A DNA stretch of 64,000 nt from Candidatus Lustribacter sp. (GTDB lineage: Bacteria > Vulcanimicrobiota > Vulcanimicrobiia > Vulcanimicrobiales > Vulcanimicrobiaceae): assembly GCA_965277805.1 (NCBI GenBank), contig OZ255842.1, positions 3,040,001 through 3,104,000 of the forward strand, read 5' to 3'. The notes beneath the pieces were generated by a model that was not told where the DNA came from, made no database searches, and was given only the letters and a program-made list of their open reading frames with translations. A program made the position numbers and the translations under genes. This document shows, one piece after another, positions 2,313 through 64,000 of the stretch; position 1 is the stretch's first letter, and every line of letters starts with the position of its first letter.

Positions 2313-4414
2313 ATGACTCCGCGCTTCCGCGCCATCACGCTCGTCGCACTCATCGCCGGCATCATCGGCGCCGCTCCGCTCGCCGCACGCGATTCCTTTC
2401 TCTGGCTCGAGAGCGTCAACGGCGCGCGGGCAATGGCGTGGGTGAAAGCCGAGAATGCCAAGACGCTTGCCGTGTTGCAGCGCGACCCGCACTTCGCGCC
2501 GTTCCGGGCCACGGCGCTGGCGTTGACGCAATCGCAGACGCGCATTCCGGTGCCCGAAGTGATCGACGGGAACGTCTACAATTTCTGGCAGGACGCAAAT
2601 CACGTGCGCGGCATCTGGCGCATGACGACGATCGCCGGCTACGCGCAACACGCACCGCCGTGGAAAACCGTGCTCGACCTCGATGCGTTGGCGGCCGCCG
2701 AGGGCAAGAACTGGGTGTGGCAGGGTGATGATTGCGAATCGCCGAGCGGAACGCGCTGTCTGATCTCCCTCTCCGACGGCGGCGAGGACGCTTCCACAAT
2801 ACGCGAATTCGATCTGACGAGCGGCACCTTCGTCGACGGCGGTTTCGTTTTGCCGCGCGCGAAGCAAACGGCGGCGTGGGTCGACGACGACACGCTGCTC
2901 GTCGCGCGGCCATGGGAGCCCACCGACGTTACGGCGTCGGGCTACTCCTACATCGTCAAGACGCTCAAGCGCGGAGAGGCGCTCGCGGATGCGGTCGAAC
3001 TCGCGCGCGGCACGAAATCCGACGTCGATACGTCACCCGTCGAACTCCACGACGGCCAAGGGCATCGCATGCTGGCGGTCCGGCGCGCGGTCTCATTCTT
3101 CGAAAGCCGCACCTCGATCGTCACGCCGTCCGGACTGCGCCCGCTCGATCTGCCGCCGAAAAACCGACTGCGCGCGCTCGTCGCGGGGCGGCTGCTGATC
3201 TCGCTCGAGCAGCCGTGGCGCGTCGGAAACCGCACGATCCCGTCCGGCGATCTCGTCTCCGTCGATCTCGCCGCCGCGACGGCCGATCCCGCACACCTCG
3301 AGCCGTCGATCGTCTATGCGCCGGGTCCGCGCGAATCGTTCGAAGACGCCGGCCGCACGCGCGATCGGCTGATCGTCACGTCGTATGCGAACGTGCGCGG
3401 ACGGGTGGCCGTGTACGCACCGCTGCCGAACGGCGGCTGGTCGAAGCGCTCGCTCGCCGTGCCCGACTACTCAACGGTGCAGCTCACCGGGACGAACGAC
3501 CGCGGGAGCACGGCCTACGTCACCGTCACGAGCTTCCTGCGACCGACGACGCTTCTGCAGCTCGATACATTGAACGGCACGTCGCGCGTCGCGAAGGCAC
3601 GGCCGGCGCTCTTCGACGCCTCGCACGACGTCGTCGAACAAAACGAAGCGACGTCGAAGGACGGCACGCGCATCCCCTACTTCATCGTGCGTCCGAAGAA
3701 CCTCGCCTACGACGGCAACGCACCGGTGATCCTCTACGCCTACGGCGGTTTCGGCGTTTCGCAGACGCCGTTCTACAGCAGCATCTTCGGCCGCCTGTGG
3801 CTGACGCCCCGCGGCGTGTTCGTGCTGGCCAACATTCGCGGCGGCGGCGAGTTCGGTCCGGCCTGGCACGACGCCGGCCTCAAGACGCATCGCCAGCGCG
3901 TCTTCGACGACTTCGCCGCGGTCGCGCGCGATCTGATCGCGCGCAAGATTACGCGCCCGCAGCGCCTCGGCATCATGGGCGGCTCGAACGGCGGCTTACT
4001 GATGGGCGTCGAGTTCACGCAGCATCCGGAACTCTACGGCGCGGTCGACATTCAGGTGCCGCTGCTCGACATGCTGCGCTACGAGCAGATCGCCGCCGGC
4101 GCGTCGTGGGTCGGCGAGTACGGCAGCGTTTCGATTCCGAGCGAGCGCGCGTTCCTGGCCAAAATCTCGCCCTACAACAACATCAAGGCCGGGGTGCACT
4201 ACCCCGAACCGCTGATCTGGACGACGACGAAGGACGATCGGGTCGGCCCGCAACACGCGCGCAAGTTCGCAGCCAAACTGGAGGCCATGCACATCCCCTA
4301 CCTGTTCTACGAAGTCACCGAAGGCGGTCACGGCGCCGGCGCCAACGCGAAGGAGACGTCGCTCACGACTGCGCTCGAGTTTACGTATCTCACGCGCCGG
4401 CTCATGGAGGACAA

Positions 4415-4418: not shown

Positions 4419-5349
<931 letters not shown>

Positions 5350-5362
<13 letters not shown>

Positions 5363-5592
5363 CCCTCGACAGTTTTCGCATCGCGCATCTTCGCGCGGTC
5401 GGGATTGGAGCCGGCGTCGCGCAAACCTTGACGCTGGTGCAGCAAATCGTAGAACCGGTCGAGTTGGACGGTAATCTCCGACAGCCGAGCGCGCCCGGCC
5501 GCATCGAGCCCGCCGTCCTCACCGCGCTTCCACAACTCGTGCTCCTCGGCAACCAGCGCCTCAATCGACTGATGAATAGATGCGTCGTTCAT
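5350..5592 (-). CDS. DUF2630 family protein
   Basis: 80 aa with LVAEEHEL...QLDRFYDLLHQRQ...R...VEGY pattern. Confidence 0.8.
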
Positions 5593-8661: not shown

Positions 8662-9836
8662 TTCGATCCCCTTGCCGAACCGGCGACGACCCAATCACCC
8701 TTCGGATTATCCCAGCGCAGCGCGAGCACGTTGTCGGCCGATAAACCGCGCTGGCTGCCGTCGCGGAAATCGTAGATCCCGCAGATGCCGGCGAAGCCGT
8801 GCAAATTTTCGATGTAGTCGCGAACGTCGGCGGCCTTCGCATCGGGTCCCAGATGCCGCAGCGCATCGACGTAGATGAGCGCCGGGTCCCAGAGCAGCGC
8901 GCTTTGAAAATCCGGCACCACGCCCGCGCCGTGCAAAGCATCGCGGAAGAGCTTTTGCTGCACGCCGACGGCGCCCGGTGAGAGCGTGTCGGTGATGTAG
9001 CCGAGTCCCGGAAAGTAGAGCTCGTTCGGCGTGATGTTGGTGAACTGCCGCATCTGCCCGAACGTCATGTTGCCTCCCGAAGTGATGTAGGGCAGGTTCA
9101 TGCCGCTGTCGGCGACGCCGTGCAGCAGCGTGCCGAACGCGATTCCCGCCGTCCACAAAAAGACGACCTGCGGGTTGGCCGCTTTGATGTTCGACATCTG
9201 CGCGGTCACGCTCAGGTCGGCCGGATTGAAGTGCTCGCGCCGCACGACATGCAGCGGCGCATTTTCCGGAAAACCCAAGGCCGTATCGAATGCCGTGTCG
9301 CCGTCTTGACCGACGGCATCCGTCGAGCTGATCCAGGCGATGCGGTTCCAGCCGCGCTGCCGCGCGAAACGCACCATCGCATACACCGCATCCGACGATG
9401 ACAGGCTGGCCGAGAACAGGTAGCTGTTCTTCGCCGGATGGACGGCGGGCGACTGACAGAACTGCACCGGGCCCGTCTTCAACAACGGTTCGGTGGCTTT
9501 GCAACTCGCGGCGACGCCCGGGCCGAGCATGAGTTGCACGCCCTTCGCCGTCAGGTCGTTGGTCAGTTGCACCGAGACGCTCGGATTCGACTGATCGTCG
9601 AGATAGACGAAGTGCACCGGCCGGCCTTTGATGCCGCCCTGTTTGTTGACCACGCCTTCGAGCAGCGTCAGCGCCGTCTGCACGCCCTTGCCGGCAAACG
9701 AGCCTTGCCCGCTCAGCGGTAATACCGCCGTGATGTCGACCGGCGCCGGCTGCGCTTGCGACATCGCGGGGAGTGCAGCCAGTAAAACAGAGGCGGCGAA
9801 CCCAGCCACGATGCGGAGCGGCGTGCGAGTGCTCAT
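8658..9836 (-). CDS. ABC transporter substrate-binding protein (LIV/PBP6 type)
   Basis: Signal peptide; LPLSG, VNKQGGIKGRPV and DDQSNP motifs. Confidence 0.88.
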   Translation of the reverse strand: MSTRTPLRIVAGFAASVLLAALPAMSQAQPAPVDITAVLPLSGQGSFAGKGVQTALTLLEGVVNKQGGIKGRPVHFVYLDDQSNPSVSVQLTNDLTAKGVQLMLGPGVAASCKATEPLLKTGPVQFCQSPAVHPAKNSYLFSASLSSSDAVYAMVRFARQRGWNRIAWISSTDAVGQDGDTAFDTALGFPENAPLHVVRREHFNPADLSVTAQMSNIKAANPQVVFLWTAGIAFGTLLHGVADSGMNLPYITSGGNMTFGQMRQFTNITPNELYFPGLGYITDTLSPGAVGVQQKLFRDALHGAGVVPDFQSALLWDPALIYVDALRHLGPDAKAADVRDYIENLHGFAGICGIYDFRDGSQRGLSADNVLALRWDNPKGDWVVAGSARGSK

Positions 9837-59033: not shown

Positions 59034-59213
59034 GATATGGCTCTCCTGTTACGGCCACGCAAATGCGGGCCTGAGGAGAGACTAGTCAGCCGCGGTAAAA
59101 AGCCGGTTACTGCCCACTTGTACGGATAAGACGTACGGATGAGCGTGTTCGCGCTCGCCCGCTAATTGCAAAATTGCGTTAACCCCCTCGTAACCAAAAG
59201 CGAGTTAACGCAC

Positions 59214-59966
59214 ATGATCGCAGTAGCACCGGCGCCCGCGTCTCCACTCTACGATAACGATCGGATCGAAGTCCGGATCCTCGACGGGACGACGTTCTTC
59301 GGCGGCCGCGAGATCAAGCTCACCGACCGCGAGTTCGCCATCCTTGCGGCGATGGCGCTGAACCGTCAGGCCCTCAACCGCGATGAGTGGTGCGATAAGC
59401 TCTGGCCGGATCGCGATGCGGATTCCGCCGCCAGCCTCCTCAAAGTCTACGTCCACCGGATACGCGCCAAATTCGGCACGGCTGGGATCATCGAAACCCA
59501 GGGCAACGGCTACCGCCTCGGGCGGCACGTCGCGATCGACGTCCACCGGTTCGAGGAGATAGCGCGCCGGCACGACGTTTCGCACGACCCGCTCGGCGGC
59601 GACGTGTTCGCGATCGTCGCGGGGGCATTCGAGAGCATCAAGGACCGCCTCTACCGTCGCATCGCCTCGCTCGAATATTACGAAGAACTGGAGCGCCGTT
59701 TCGTCGCGATCGGAGTCGAACTCGCGCGCCTTCTCGTGCACGACGCCTTCCTGCGCGGTGACACGGCGTACGCAGCACGCATTGCGGAAGAGCTGGTCTC
59801 CCTCGATCCCTACGACGACGTCGCGGCGGAACTGTTCATCCGCGCGCAGTTGCTGCTCGGCCGCCAGGATGCGGCGGCGCGCCATTTTCGCACCTTCTGC
59901 CGGACGCTGCGTGACGAACTCGACGTGCCGCCGCCGGCCCACCTCACGCAGCTGTTCGCGCGATGA
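59214..59966 (+). CDS. SARP-like regulator (OmpR-type wHTH plus BTAD-like domain)
   Basis: LTDREFAIL, LWPD, LKVYVHRIR, GYRL, DVHRF and LDPYDD...ELDVPP motifs. Confidence 0.82.
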   Translation: MIAVAPAPASPLYDNDRIEVRILDGTTFFGGREIKLTDREFAILAAMALNRQALNRDEWCDKLWPDRDADSAASLLKVYVHRIRAKFGTAGIIETQGNGYRLGRHVAIDVHRFEEIARRHDVSHDPLGGDVFAIVAGAFESIKDRLYRRIASLEYYEELERRFVAIGVELARLLVHDAFLRGDTAYAARIAEELVSLDPYDDVAAELFIRAQLLLGRQDAAARHFRTFCRTLRDELDVPPPAHLTQLFAR

Positions 59967-60108: not shown

Positions 60109-62331
60109 CTGAGCAGCGACGCCAGGTCCGGCGTAATCGATGGCGCTCCAGCCTTCGGGCCGCTATTGCGCCGCTTGCGAATTGCCGCCGGCCTCTCGCA
60201 AGAGGCCCTCGCCGAGCGTGCGCGGATCAGCACCGAAGCGGTCGGCTCGCTGGAACGCGGCTCGCGCCGTGCGCCGCAGCGCCAAACGCTGGCGCTGCTG
60301 ATCGATGCGCTGCGGGTCGAGGGCGAGGAACGCATCAGGCTCGAGCAGGCCGCGATTCGACCGTCGTTGCCGCGCCGGCGCGAAAGTGGCCCGAGCGTGG
60401 CCGGCGTGGCCTCCGCATTGCGTCTGCCGGCACCGCTGACGTCGTTCGTCGGACGCGGACGCGATCTGCACGTCCTCGAAGCGGCGATCTCCGGCGCGCG
60501 CCTGGTTTCGCTCGTCGGCCCGGGCGGTGTCGGCAAGAGCCGGCTCGCACTCGAGGCGGCGCGGCGATCCGGGGACCGTTTCGCAGACGGCGTGGTGCTC
60601 GTCGAACTGGCCCCGATTGCAGCCGGAGCGTCGGTAGTCAGCGCGTTCGCAACCGCGCTAGGCGTCGCCGACGAGGGCGAGATACGGCTGCTCGACCGCG
60701 TCGTCGCGGCTTGCCGTGCGGGGCACCGGCTCATTATCGCCGACAATTGCGAGCACGTGCTCGATGCGTGCGCCGAAGTCGTGCTCGCATTGCTGAGCGT
60801 TTGTCCAAACGTGCGCGTGATGGCGACGAGCCGTGAGCCGTTGCGCGTAGTGGGCGAACACATTCTGCGGCTCGGCCCGCTTGAACCCGAAGCGGCGCTG
60901 CAGCTCTTCATCGACCGCGCCAAAGCGGTTGCGCCGCACCTGCGCTTCGAACCGGACGAATTGGAGGTTGCCGCACAAATTTGCGGCCGCGTCGACGGGA
61001 TTCCGCTGGCGATCGAATTGGCCGCCTCGCGGGCCGACATCTTCGACCTCGAAACGATACTCGCCCGGCTGCGCGAACGCTTCAAGCTGCTCTCGGTCGG
61101 ATCTCGCACCACGCTTCCGCACCATCGGACACTGCGCGCGCTCGTCGACTGGAGTCACGAACTGCTCGACCCCGACGAAGCGCGGCTGTTCGGGCGCCTC
61201 GGAATCTTTGCCGGCGGCGGCCGGTTCGATGACGTGGAGCGAATTCTCGCCTTCGACGGGATCGAACCGGGTCCCATCTGGGAATTCCTCGCCCGGCTGC
61301 ATGCCAAGTCGCTCGTCGATGTCGACCGCGCTAATCCGCCGCGCTTCTCAATGCTGCAGACGATTCACGATTACGCCCGGGAACGACTCGCCGGCACCAA
61401 CGAAATCGCCCAACTCGAGCACCGGTTTGCGACGCATTTTCTTGAGTTGGTGATTGCGTCCGGCCCGGCACTGCGCAGCGCTCTCCAAGGCGAAACGATC
61501 GACCGTCTGTCGGCGGAAGTGGACAACATTCGTTCCGCCTTGACGCTGAGCGGCGGAAATCCGGCGCTGCACGAACTAGGCTTACGAGCGCTGGGGCCAC
61601 TCGCATTTTATTGGATGCGCACGGGCGCGTTAACCGAGGCATCGACGCGCATCGAGTCGCTCACCAAAGATGCGCGGAAACCGACGCTCGGCGTCGCTTG
61701 GGCATGCGCCGGCGGCGCGTTCATCGAGTTCAACCGGGCGCGCTTTCCCGAGGGAAACGCCTATGCCGCGCGGGCCCACGAAGCCGCGCAGGCGTGCGGC
61801 GATGAGTGGGTGAGCATCTACGCTTCGTTAGCCGTCTGTTGGGGACGTTCGCGCGCCGGCGAGAGTCCGGATGCAGCGGTTCTCGACGCCTACGAACGCG
61901 CGCAACGCCTCGGCGATCCCTGGCTCATCGTGTCAGCCGCCTTTGAGTTGGGCGGAGCGGCGCTCGCGCGAAATGACCGCGCGAGTGCGACGGACCGTTT
62001 TTCCGAAGCTCTCGAAAGCGCGCGAACGATCGGCGACAAGTTCATGGTGTCGTCGTCGGCGGTGCAACTCGGACGTTTGCTCGCAGAAAATGAACCGGTC
62101 AAAGCCGCCCGGCTGATCGGCGATGCCATCGAAAACCTAGCGCCGAGCGCCGTCCGGGCACGTTCGGTGTGCATGGACGCACTGGCGCCGATCGCGCTTG
62201 CGTTCGATCGGCCGGATGATGCCGCCCGGATAACGGAAACCGCGAGCACCCTCCGGCTGACGGCCGGCGGCGGATCGTCGCTTGCCGAAGCAAACGACGC
62301 CGTTCACTCATTCTTGTCCGCCCTGAACTAG
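60109..62331 (+). CDS. XRE-HTH plus NB-ARC/STAND ATPase plus TPR-like regulator
   Basis: FGPLLRRLR..AGLSQEALAERA, SFVGR, GPGGVGKS, ADNCEH, TSREPL and DGIPLAIELAA motifs; start uncertain (CTG 60109 or TTG 60166). Confidence 0.85.
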   Translation: MSSDARSGVIDGAPAFGPLLRRLRIAAGLSQEALAERARISTEAVGSLERGSRRAPQRQTLALLIDALRVEGEERIRLEQAAIRPSLPRRRESGPSVAGVASALRLPAPLTSFVGRGRDLHVLEAAISGARLVSLVGPGGVGKSRLALEAARRSGDRFADGVVLVELAPIAAGASVVSAFATALGVADEGEIRLLDRVVAACRAGHRLIIADNCEHVLDACAEVVLALLSVCPNVRVMATSREPLRVVGEHILRLGPLEPEAALQLFIDRAKAVAPHLRFEPDELEVAAQICGRVDGIPLAIELAASRADIFDLETILARLRERFKLLSVGSRTTLPHHRTLRALVDWSHELLDPDEARLFGRLGIFAGGGRFDDVERILAFDGIEPGPIWEFLARLHAKSLVDVDRANPPRFSMLQTIHDYARERLAGTNEIAQLEHRFATHFLELVIASGPALRSALQGETIDRLSAEVDNIRSALTLSGGNPALHELGLRALGPLAFYWMRTGALTEASTRIESLTKDARKPTLGVAWACAGGAFIEFNRARFPEGNAYAARAHEAAQACGDEWVSIYASLAVCWGRSRAGESPDAAVLDAYERAQRLGDPWLIVSAAFELGGAALARNDRASATDRFSEALESARTIGDKFMVSSSAVQLGRLLAENEPVKAARLIGDAIENLAPSAVRARSVCMDALAPIALAFDRPDDAARITETASTLRLTAGGGSSLAEANDAVHSFLSALN

Positions 62332-62333
62332 CC

Positions 62334-62591
62334 TCAGGGATGCGTGATGACGTTAACGATTTGAAAATTGCCCGGCGGGGGCTTATCGCCTACAACGATC
62401 ATGCTTGCGGCCAGCGTCATGATGTTCTGGACGTCCCCGGGTTGGACGAGATTCTGCGGCATGACCGTTTCGTTGATGAGGTTGGCTATTTTCTCGTTGC
62501 TGCTTCCCGCGCCGGCTAATGCTTCGCGTACCCGTGGGTTCGTCGCCAGATGACCGACCCAGCTGCGGGTGATTTGATCGATGTCTGTCAT
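62334..62591 (-). CDS. 85-aa protein, candidate RiPP precursor or YcaO substrate with Nif11-like leader
   Basis: AGGAG RBS; starts 8 bp after the ycaO stop; helical N-terminal half resembles Nif11-type leaders. Confidence 0.6.
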   Translation of the reverse strand: MTDIDQITRSWVGHLATNPRVREALAGAGSSNEKIANLINETVMPQNLVQPGDVQNIMTLAASMIVVGDKPPPGNFQIVNVITHP

Positions 62592-62599
62592 GGTGCTCC

Positions 62600-63859
62600 T
62601 TAGAACGTAGGGACTGGAACGAGGTTGAGAATGGCGCGGACCGCCGGTCCGTACGTATTGCCGGACGCGGGAGTTTCAAGGCGTGGCGCAACGGCCCGCA
62701 CGACGTAGAGGGGAAGGTCCGTCGGGGAAAGATCGACGAGCGCGACTGGTCCGGCGTTCGCGGCGCGCAATGCGGCGACGAGCACACCCACGTCTAGCGC
62801 TACGTCGCTCGTCGATCGATCGGCGAACGAACTTAGCGCGCGCGCGGGGGCCGGCGCATCGTAGAACCAGCGCCCCGACGGAACGCCGAACGTGCGCCGA
62901 ATGCCGTAATCAGGAACGTTCGCGTCATCGTGACGGCACAGATCTTCGCGCGCGCCCAAAAAGTCGGAAGCGCGCGCTTGAGCGGCTTCGGTGAGGGCGC
63001 GGATCGCGGCATGCTCGGGCGACAACGAGCAGCCGGCGCCGCTGTGCGCCGCGGATTCACCGCCCGCGTGGTCGGCGATCGTCGCTAAGACAAGAAGCGG
63101 AAATGGATCGACCTCCAGCGCGCGTAGCCGGCACGACAGGCCCGCCGAACGGATCCGATCGATGAGCGCATCCACCATCGCGAACCCGGAGGGCACCTCG
63201 ATATCCGAAGCGATCGGGTCATCGATGAACCCGGGGATCGATCCGGTTCCGCCGGTAAAGCGCGAGACGATCGCCCGCGGACGAAGATATCCCCGGGCGT
63301 GTCCAACCGCCCAAAGATGGCGCTCGGCCAGCTCCGTCACCGCATGGTAAACGGCTTCGGCATACGTGTTTCCGCTCGCCAGTCCGTTGGACGAGTCGCC
63401 GAAGATGACGCGTTCACCATGCCACGGACACTGCACGAGAGCGAGCGGGACGTCAAGCGCATCGCCTGTGAGCAAATCCGTCCCAGCGACGCAGACGATC
63501 TCTTCCGCCGGCGGCGGCGGCCAGTGGCCGCCGGGATCGATTGCGGCCAGCACGGTCTTGGCATCGCGCACGAACGCCGGCAAACGCGGCGCAGCCGCGA
63601 CCTGCCGTTCAACGGCTTCCATCACCGCTCCGGCGAGCGCGCTCTCGCGCGTCGGTCCCTTGCCGTTGTAGACGCTGATGACGTCCGGTGAGCCGGGGGC
63701 GATCGCGCTCATTACCGGAATGCCGATTCGATCGAGGTGCGTGATGTCGGCGATGCGCGTGATGCCGAAGCGCTCGCGCAGTTGCGGAATCAGCGCGAGC
63801 GTTTGTTCCACCGGCACGCAGCGGTCGAACGAACCCGGCGCTTTCGGAGCGCAACGCAC
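62600..63859 (-). CDS. ycaO: YcaO family protein (TfuA-associated type)
   Basis: FGITRIADITHLDRIGIPV, NGKG, MEAVER, SSNGLASG, ELAERH and ALTEAAQAR...GARED motifs; GTG start just after the upstream stop. Confidence 0.92.
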   Translation of the reverse strand: MRCAPKAPGSFDRCVPVEQTLALIPQLRERFGITRIADITHLDRIGIPVMSAIAPGSPDVISVYNGKGPTRESALAGAVMEAVERQVAAAPRLPAFVRDAKTVLAAIDPGGHWPPPPAEEIVCVAGTDLLTGDALDVPLALVQCPWHGERVIFGDSSNGLASGNTYAEAVYHAVTELAERHLWAVGHARGYLRPRAIVSRFTGGTGSIPGFIDDPIASDIEVPSGFAMVDALIDRIRSAGLSCRLRALEVDPFPLLVLATIADHAGGESAAHSGAGCSLSPEHAAIRALTEAAQARASDFLGAREDLCRHDDANVPDYGIRRTFGVPSGRWFYDAPAPARALSSFADRSTSDVALDVGVLVAALRAANAGPVALVDLSPTDLPLYVVRAVAPRLETPASGNTYGPAVRAILNLVPVPTF

Positions 63860-63863
63860 AAGC

Positions 63864-63998
63864 TCAAGCAACGGCGCCCACCCGGGTACGTGCGCGCAAC
63901 ACGCGGCGCAACGCAAAGCGCGCATCCCAGCGCTTGAGATCGCCTTCGCGACGTGCGATGTCGAGCAGTGCGGATTGGGCCGCCGCCGGCGCACAGGC
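63864..63998 (-). CDS. TfuA-like protein C-terminus (truncated by the window edge; not in the ORF track)
   Basis: Minus-strand frame reads ACAPAAAQSALLDIARREGDLKRWDARFALRRVLRARTRVGAVA*. DLKxxDAxxAL resembles the TfuA C-terminal D(L/Q)KxxDA motif, and it abuts ycaO. Confidence 0.6.
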   Translation of the reverse strand, partial: ACAPAAAQSALLDIARREGDLKRWDARFALRRVLRARTRVGAVA

Positions 63999-64000
63999 TA

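Follow-up and report, generated by a model that had tools for sequence, protein, structure and literature searches.

Does the YcaO enzyme encoded beside a TfuA protein in Candidatus Lustribacter sp. modify the small protein whose gene directly follows its own, and is the modification a backbone thioamide? The question was raised by the last genes of a 64,000-nucleotide stretch of DNA (the window), which covers positions 3,040,001–3,104,000 of a single 5.53 Mb contig (OZ255842.1; this genome is designated G000 and the extension of the contig beyond the window edge L001). The host is a soil bacterium, and its phylum, Vulcanimicrobiota (Eremiobacterota), is barely studied and known almost solely from metagenomes. 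We found that tfuA, ycaO and an 85-codon open reading frame (ORF), all on the minus strand, form a compact three-gene operon that most likely makes a small ribosomal peptide with sulfur in its backbone. Together with a convergent STAND regulator, these genes probably constitute a minimal cluster for a peptide that is made on the ribosome and then post-translationally modified (RiPP), in which the 85-amino-acid (aa) product would be thioamidated. The locus is a real, uncharacterised variant of the known YcaO–TfuA thioamide RiPP pathways.

Genes of the cluster and architecture of the small protein

The three ORFs are tightly packed, as stated in a preliminary description of the window: on the minus strand, 4 bp separate tfuA from ycaO (counted with the GTG start of ycaO) and 8 bp separate ycaO from the 85-codon ORF. 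The cluster also reaches past the window, as presumed there, and extending the contig yielded the remainder of tfuA. The 3′ end of this gene lies at 63864–64000, and the gene continues to window-equivalent 64475 or 64496. The full frame, 203 aa from a TTG at 64475, matched Pfam PF07812 (E 8.8e-30; 103 bits, cut-off 30) and had 6xp8 as its closest solved chain (E 1.8e-25), in agreement with the earlier naming of the upstream ORF as TfuA. Its window portion had been reported as a fragment ending in DLKRWDARFAL, which was incorrect: the open-ended frame 63864–63998 contains this motif and runs 14 residues further, to RRVLRARTRVGAVA, with the TGA stop at 63866–63864.

The ycaO gene (62600–63859, minus strand) encodes 419 aa from the GTG at 63859; if it started at the in-frame TTG at 63871 instead, it would have an 8-nt overlap with the tfuA stop. 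The protein contains GITRIADITHLDRIGIP and matched PF02624 across the full profile (positions 1–325, E 1.4e-46). Residues E81, E84, E168, E176, E179, R180, E291 and E305 were invariant in 24 related YcaOs; we take these acidic and Arg residues to be the ATP/Mg-binding motifs, and with the full-length domain match they fit the ATP-binding motif set attributed to this protein. The matches to TfuA and to YcaO at this locus were the only ones in the whole genome.

The third gene (62334–62591, minus strand) is preceded by its own AGGAG ribosome-binding site (TAAGGAGCACCATG, 62596–62600), which overlaps the TAA stop of ycaO, and encodes a protein without Cys; both features had been noticed before and were read again from the sequence. 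Third-position GC of the ORF was highest in its own frame (0.70 versus 0.59 and 0.41) and, taken with the relatives found at the protein level, shows the ORF to be a gene and not a frame left open by chance. When 1.84 billion representative proteins were scanned with HMMER (E ≤ 0.001), 19 matched, and 18 of these were small proteins (56–106 aa) with a common N-terminal pattern. The remaining one, P0005, a 1142-aa repeat protein, was spurious and was dropped, and P0020, a truncated member of 56 aa, was omitted from the alignment (A3). A word-index protein search with the 85-aa sequence retrieved just two close relatives. The precursor family is unnamed in the databases searched: the ten relatives looked up, all of metagenome origin, were unnamed or annotated as "hypothetical protein", the 85-aa protein reached no cut-off of a Pfam or NCBIfam model, and an NCBIfam scan of 20 family members returned scattered single matches only. 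The ESM Atlas offered no usable match for the small protein, and a Foldseek search of the PDB with the leader model found nothing under E 1, the top match being the PEX14 N-domain (E 1.6).

In the 20-sequence family alignment, mean pairwise identity was 0.43 over the leader of ~64 residues (residues 1–64, 62400–62591) and 0.16 over the tail of ~21 residues (residues 65–85, with VGDKPPPGNFQIVNVITHP at the end; 62334–62399 including the TGA stop). R9, G13, R22 and N40 were invariant across the 20 sequences, and the tail consensus kept just a Pro, an Asn, which is the most conserved tail residue, and a C-terminal GG that is not uniform among the members. The Lustribacter tail has no Cys, no Ser and one Thr. 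An AlphaFold2 model built on A3 placed helices at residues 4–17, 19–28, 32–43 and 51–64 (predicted local distance difference test, pLDDT, of 86–93 for the block) and left the tail disordered (pLDDT 54–68). The 85-aa product looks like a RiPP precursor with a conserved leader and a hypervariable core.

Other identities of the small protein were considered. A ThiS-like sulfur carrier was rejected on the all-helical model and on C-termini that are not uniformly GG, and a RiPP recognition element (RRE) was rejected on the same all-helical model. The description of the leader as Nif11-like could not be established either. The 85-aa protein did not match Nif11 (PF07862) at E values up to 10, and the weak Nif11 matches seen in two sets of family members (3 of 20, best E 0.07; 3 of 28, best E 0.0089) all stayed below the cut-off. 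With the GG cleavage motif of Nif11-type leaders taken as defined in the part of Malit et al. (2021, PMC8120280) used here, a conserved Gly-Gly was not found at the leader/tail junction, and many members carry GG at the far C-terminus; a peptidase-exporter of the Nif11-associated type was not found among the neighbouring ORFs scanned.

Linkage of the precursor family to tfuA and ycaO

Co-occurrence of the 85-aa homologues with tfuA–ycaO had been named beforehand as a check on the substrate assignment, and linkage was found in genus-mates, in metagenome loci and in most of the TfuA loci chosen from other genera. The genus-mates G001, G002 and G003 have tfuA, ycaO, the small ORF and a convergent STAND regulator in the same order as here, with leaders 35–49% identical to the G000 leader and unrelated tails. 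A pattern scan of genome contigs ended with one of 11 matched stretches confirmed, that of genus-mate G001, and a scan of metagenomes with two of 28. Both metagenome loci have ycaO directly upstream of the small ORF and the convergent regulator downstream, with tfuA present as well in the longer of the two. Among the remaining genera of the phylum, 20 TfuA loci were chosen, ~10 kb was fetched around each, and the family-iterated profile detected a family member in 18, always on the tfuA/ycaO strand and at 33–2167 bp from ycaO where a ycaO match fell within the fetched stretch. As a control of specificity, the profile was run on 74,422 frames of G000 and matched this ORF alone (E 1.4e-18; next, 0.14).

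Of 401 genomes sampled from the phylum, 77 have TfuA; on this count the system appears common in the phylum, and TfuA was strictly adjacent or fused to YcaO across this sample. In many genera, sister genera included, the two are fused into one open frame (for example, a protein of 654 aa with both Pfam domains). Besides the order tfuA–ycaO–precursor, we observed precursor–ycaO–tfuA, tfuA–precursor separated from ycaO by a LuxR-type STAND regulator, and a fused tfuA–ycaO followed by an S-adenosylmethionine (SAM) methyltransferase and the precursor. The last layout was seen in several sister genera (L056–L067; e.g., L058, 2898–6099), with a TfuA–YcaO protein of ~655 aa, a class I SAM methyltransferase of ~290–300 aa and a 95-aa precursor whose tail is conserved as AP[HR]HVGxxxxMQQ[SD]. 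In G039 (L015, 3373–6096), and likewise in G038 and G041, a 907-aa AAA_16 + LuxR (GerE) regulator on the opposite strand parts tfuA–precursor from ycaO, and a methyltransferase gene adjoins ycaO.

Relatives differ in their cores. In G161 tfuA and ycaO flank a multi-core precursor (L070, 5073–5564) with 4–5 cassettes, each 14 residues long (APSHVGxGFVVQxD), and, at 5338–5533, a 42-nt tandem repeat in 3.9–4.7 copies; these tandem repeats are predicted repeated core cassettes. The same locus has a second, single-core family member at 9065–9355. In G289 (L017, 3566–3886) and G382 (L068, 3526–3816), both with the order precursor–ycaO–tfuA, the tails are Cys-rich (CDGFEC...GECPT and DCPCDGTGL), and azoline formation or other Cys chemistry may take place there.

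Several aspects of this survey count against our interpretation. The 20 loci represent related genomes chosen by hand and are not independent samples, and in two of them (L073 and L074) no family member was found within about 5 kb. Homology between the leaders from other genera and those of the Lustribacter type follows from an hhalign comparison in which the two sets had no rows in common (97.6%, E 2.8e-12); the figure is partly circular because the non-genus set had been collected with the iterated profile. In G323 (L018, 6071–6415) a weak, partial leader-like ORF matches the family profile over helices 2–4 only (E about 1e-8 within the locus), and no TfuA or YcaO was found within 6 kb of it; this ORF may be an orphan or decayed family member.

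Leader docking and the predicted chemistry

Modelling of the complex of YcaO and the precursor gave an ipSAE of 0.68 (0.72, 0.62 and 0.68 in the individual runs), and the best of three controls reached 0.01. In calibration, 58 of 80 solved complexes attained the ipSAE mark, as did 2 of 110 mismatched pairs, counts that are only roughly valid here because custom alignments were supplied. The runs shared at least 40% of contacts, with a partner pLDDT of at least 73. In the modelled interface, leader residues 12–26, 35 and 58–67, which include the conserved G13, T17 and R22, face YcaO residues 194–215 (63215–63280, minus strand), the predicted leader-docking loop. These residues are enclosed by a segment of 41 residues (187–227) that could not be aligned to MJ1094, which has 18 there, and the segment is 9–12 residues shorter in genera with another leader type. 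The model supports binding of the leader to YcaO, and the loop would be a lineage-specific recognition loop for it. The proposal that the small ORF is the substrate is supported by computed evidence of three kinds, namely the linkage of its homologues to tfuA–ycaO, the leader/core split and the docking model.

The proposed mechanism would start with docking of the folded four-helix leader (~64 residues) on the lineage-specific YcaO loop, so that the flexible C-terminal core of ~21 residues would be presented to the enzyme. YcaO with ATP would activate a backbone amide of the core, TfuA would deliver sulfide drawn from a thiocarboxylated carrier of the ThiS type whose gene lies elsewhere in the genome, and the exchange of the amide oxygen for sulfur would give the thioamide. 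The modified position may be the conserved Pro-Gly or, within the IVNVI stretch, the Asn. No other tail residues are kept as well here as Pro and Asn, and both have precedents: thiovarsolin is thioamidated at Pro (PMC6511847, in the part consulted), and a YcaO–TfuA pair thioamidates an Asn of StdA according to the sections used of a 2026 preprint (PMC13174530). A Pfam and ORF scan of the neighbouring ORFs revealed no protease and no transporter or exporter in the locus, which counts against our explanation; the core would therefore be released by a host protease, or the product would remain a modified small protein.

The chemistry, the site and the sulfur relay are inferred. The best NCBIfam model for YcaO was TIGR03266 (McrA-glycine thioamidation) with 170 bits, and its solved relatives ranked in the order M. 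jannaschii MJ1094 (1.6e-24), M. kandleri YcaO (4.4e-9) and TruD (6.2e-5). Family-model scores and the ranking of solved relatives, used instead of a tree, together with the TfuA partner and the TfuA fusions put this YcaO on the predicted thioamide side of the superfamily, and nothing found contradicted the earlier assignments of the upstream gene, the YcaO type and the linkage of the small ORF. The TfuA partner, TIGR03266 as best match, the Cys-free core and two ThiS-family genes elsewhere in the genome all point to thioamidation. Azoline formation had been judged not to be indicated by the visible genes, in accordance with a tail lacking Cys and Ser and with a locus in which no dehydrogenase, E1-like or RRE partner gene was found. 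The protein also scored below the cut-offs of TIGR03604, the SagD-type azoline cyclodehydratase (64 bits, cut-off 219), and of NF040716, the S12/uL16-type model (20 bits, cut-off 700).

The same scores set limits to the assignment. With 170 bits the enzyme lies far below the TIGR03266 cut-off of 365 and, judged by its matches, cannot be counted as equivalog to any thioamidating YcaO characterised so far. The predicted thioamide chemistry is deduced from homology and from the TfuA partner. YcaO enzymes as a superfamily form azolines, amidines and thioamides. It is unlikely, yet worth weighing, that the small protein is the substrate but receives another modification, such as a methyloxazoline at the single tail Thr, an amidine or a thioamide that reacts further, with TfuA in a secondary role. 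Such an outcome would suit the range of the superfamily and an enzyme below the cut-off of every specific NCBIfam model, but the top-scoring model and the top solved relative are both thioamide-forming enzymes. The Cys-rich tails of the G289 and G382 relatives could form thiazolines, whereas the tail here, with neither Cys nor Ser, offers one Thr only, and neither a dehydrogenase nor an E1-like partner is present in the locus. A SAM methyltransferase is part of many sister clusters, which means that members of the family do undergo further chemistry, and the start of tfuA is doubtful in this genome; on the other hand, TfuA strictly adjoins or is fused to YcaO across the phylum sample.

The start of tfuA deserves separate consideration. 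The first ATG, GTG or TTG of the frame comes only after the codons for VFAGPSLP, the conserved N-terminus of TfuA; this stretch is preceded by ATG in genus-mate G001 and by GTG in the metagenome locus L077. The start is uncertain: either the rare ATC at window-equivalent 64496 serves, or tfuA begins at the TTG at 64475 and loses the VFAGPSLP strand. On the minus strand of L001 4476–4520 (window-equivalent 64476–64520), the in-frame codons read ERICVFAGPSLP, and ATC is the sole plausible start among them. A hairpin with a 9-bp stem and a T run (64517–64497) occur at the tfuA start, as does a three-codon ATG mini-frame in another frame. As no canonical start precedes VFAGPSLP, TfuA may be impaired in this strain, a further point against modification of the peptide here; an assembly error at the tfuA start is also possible.

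Decay of the cluster in this strain, with tfuA deprived of a usable start, no modified peptide made here and the family functional elsewhere, is in our judgement very unlikely. The missing canonical start, which G001 and L077 retain, and the hairpin followed by a T run exactly at the start of the gene would fit decay, but the upstream codons remain in frame and conserved at the amino-acid level, translation table 11 permits ATC as a rare start, both ycaO and the precursor gene are undamaged and keep their coupled spacing, and a single wrong base in the assembly could lie behind the missing start. A soil RNA-library run containing a tenth of the sampled words also speaks faintly against decay: it yielded a 207-nt contig on ycaO (62642–62848, one mismatch) and a 35-nt partial match, with no coverage of the precursor gene or tfuA, and the contig is a weak hint only, because DNA can occur in RNA libraries.

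Highly improbable is modification by YcaO–TfuA of a protein encoded elsewhere, as known for McrA in methanogens and for uL16 in E. coli (PMC13063428, in the part consulted), with the 85-aa protein as an accessory scaffold, chaperone, regulator or immunity protein: a folded domain of ~64 residues is long for a leader and the cluster has no protease or exporter, but a hypervariable tail on a conserved N-terminal domain and tandem cassettes as in G161 would be unexpected in an accessory factor, the alpha subunit of methyl-coenzyme M reductase (MCR) was not found in the genome (a control search matched in two methanogens), the S12/uL16-type model gave 20 bits, and the small protein, all-helical and with tails not uniformly GG-ended, does not qualify as a beta-grasp sulfur carrier or as a PqqD-like RRE.

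With thioamidation of the 85-aa product as the preferred explanation, a wider proposal may be considered for the phylum as a whole. It would be an undescribed, phylum-wide RiPP class in which a four-helix leader of ~64 residues binds directly to an inserted loop of YcaO, whether this enzyme stands alone or is fused to TfuA, without RRE or E1-like partners, and in which short, hypervariable, sometimes multi-copy C-terminal cores are thioamidated and, in some genera, methylated. We regard this proposal as tentative and are slightly more inclined to doubt it than to accept it. If true, the products would lie outside the five characterised YcaO–TfuA classes, which are counted as four plus a fifth in the discussion of the 2026 preprint (PMC13174530).

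Known YcaO–TfuA pathways and the surroundings of the locus

The locus has the features of a YcaO–TfuA thioamide RiPP cluster, i.e., a YcaO domain, an adjoining TfuA and a precursor with conserved and variable parts; it lacks those that would define a Nif11 leader, a TIGR03266 equivalog, an NF040716 member, a SagD-type thiazole/oxazole-modified microcin (TOMM) or a thioamitide. Among the closest known systems is the archaeal pair acting on the McrA glycine (TIGR03266 + TfuA; 6pe3/6peu and 6xp8), which supplied the top-scoring model and, for both enzymes, the best solved relatives, and the presumed ATP-dependent exchange of O for S with a ThiS-type sulfur donor would be common to both systems. 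The Lustribacter system differs in the score (170 against 365 bits), in the extra YcaO loop, in the McrA that was not found in its genome, and in having a dedicated small peptide as the predicted substrate. Thioamitides need a C-terminal Cys for S-aminovinylcysteine (AviCys) and further tailoring enzymes. Thioviridamide-type products share backbone thioamides made by YcaO–TfuA, whereas the tail here has no Cys and the locus no such tailoring enzymes.

A close parallel in gene content is thiovarsolin of Streptomyces varsoviensis, with varA for the precursor, varY for YcaO and varT for TfuA and, as here, no dedicated protease; in the part of PMC6511847 consulted, the varA–varY–varT set is sufficient for a thioamidated product and needs no dedicated protease. 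The precursors of that family have from one core to five repeats (same part of PMC6511847), comparable to the 4–5 cassettes of the G161 relative. Thiovarsolin comes from Actinobacteria, in contrast to the Vulcanimicrobiota host studied here, where G000 has a single core without APR, a four-helix leader of ~64 residues and no heme-oxygenase-like varO. Its APR repeats and the AP[RHS]HVG cassettes of other-genus relatives (repeated in G161) were compared by description and show a resemblance only. In the Std pathway (StdA with the YcaO–TfuA pair StdGH), the sections of PMC13174530 drawn on here describe a thioamidated Asn in a short conserved C-terminal motif, and Asn is likewise the best-kept tail residue of the present family; the Std cluster adds a carbamoyltransferase-peptidase and a multinuclear non-heme iron-dependent oxidative (MNIO) enzyme, neither of which is present here.

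YcaO–TfuA clusters are listed by the thousand in the genome survey of Malit et al. (2021), and Nif11-like precursors in TfuA-related clusters were predicted in silico for Cyanobacteria and Proteobacteria (PMC8120280, in the part consulted). Those clusters resemble the present one in the long helical leader, the YcaO–TfuA pair and the uncharacterised products, and differ from it in that the family described here falls below the Nif11 cut-off and has neither a conserved GG at the junction nor a C39/ABC exporter. The name Eremiobacterota has 0 occurrences in the main text of the survey, the supplementary tables being outside the check, and we found no literature linking Eremiobacterota or Vulcanimicrobiota to YcaO or TfuA, with the reservation that the supplements of Malit et al. 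(2021) and of the RiPPER paper, which were not covered, may list clusters or precursors of the phylum. The enzyme pair and its logic are already known; new are the precursor family, the four-helix leader with a docking prediction, the spread in an uncultured phylum and the series of cores. Uncharacterised TfuA–YcaO clusters with other precursors recur in genome surveys, and the locus is a good natural-product and enzymology lead with no new biological principle. Substrate recognition by TfuA-dependent YcaOs is poorly understood, and the locus provides a minimal three-gene system with a testable model of leader docking, together with naturally diverse cores, a multi-core precursor among them, that could serve to map substrate rules.

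Downstream of the precursor gene, a convergent gene on the plus strand (60166–62331) encodes a 721-aa HTH/NB-ARC-type STAND ATPase (Pfam HTH_3, AAA_22 and NB-ARC) with a long, helical C-terminal half. It is probably the regulator of the cluster; G001, G002, G003 and both metagenome loci each have an orthologue that likewise converges on the precursor gene. Its weak NCBIfam matches to RiPP-associated tetratricopeptide-repeat (TPR) proteins were far under the cut-off. The stops of the two genes lie 2 bp apart (62329–62336), which leaves no space for terminators, so the convergent transcripts would overlap. A promoter scan of the locus gave 0 sigma-70-like sites. In genus-mate G002 (L005, about 2570–3216) the STAND regulator gene is interrupted by more than 600 A/T bases, which look like an assembly artefact or filler.

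On the other side, just past the window, upstream of tfuA and on the opposite strand and beyond (L001, 4701–7208), there are three genes that are not kept beside the cluster in genus-mate G001: one for a 108-aa protein with a signal-peptide-like N-terminus, one for a 330-aa Ice_binding-like protein (PF11999, E 5e-40) and one for a protein with a Cu_amine_oxidN1 domain. Finally, a SARP-type regulator (Pfam Trans_reg_C + BTAD) encoded on the plus strand at 59166–59966 possibly belongs to the cluster; a gene 47% identical to it is located directly upstream of tfuA in G001 (L006), on the opposite side of the cluster.

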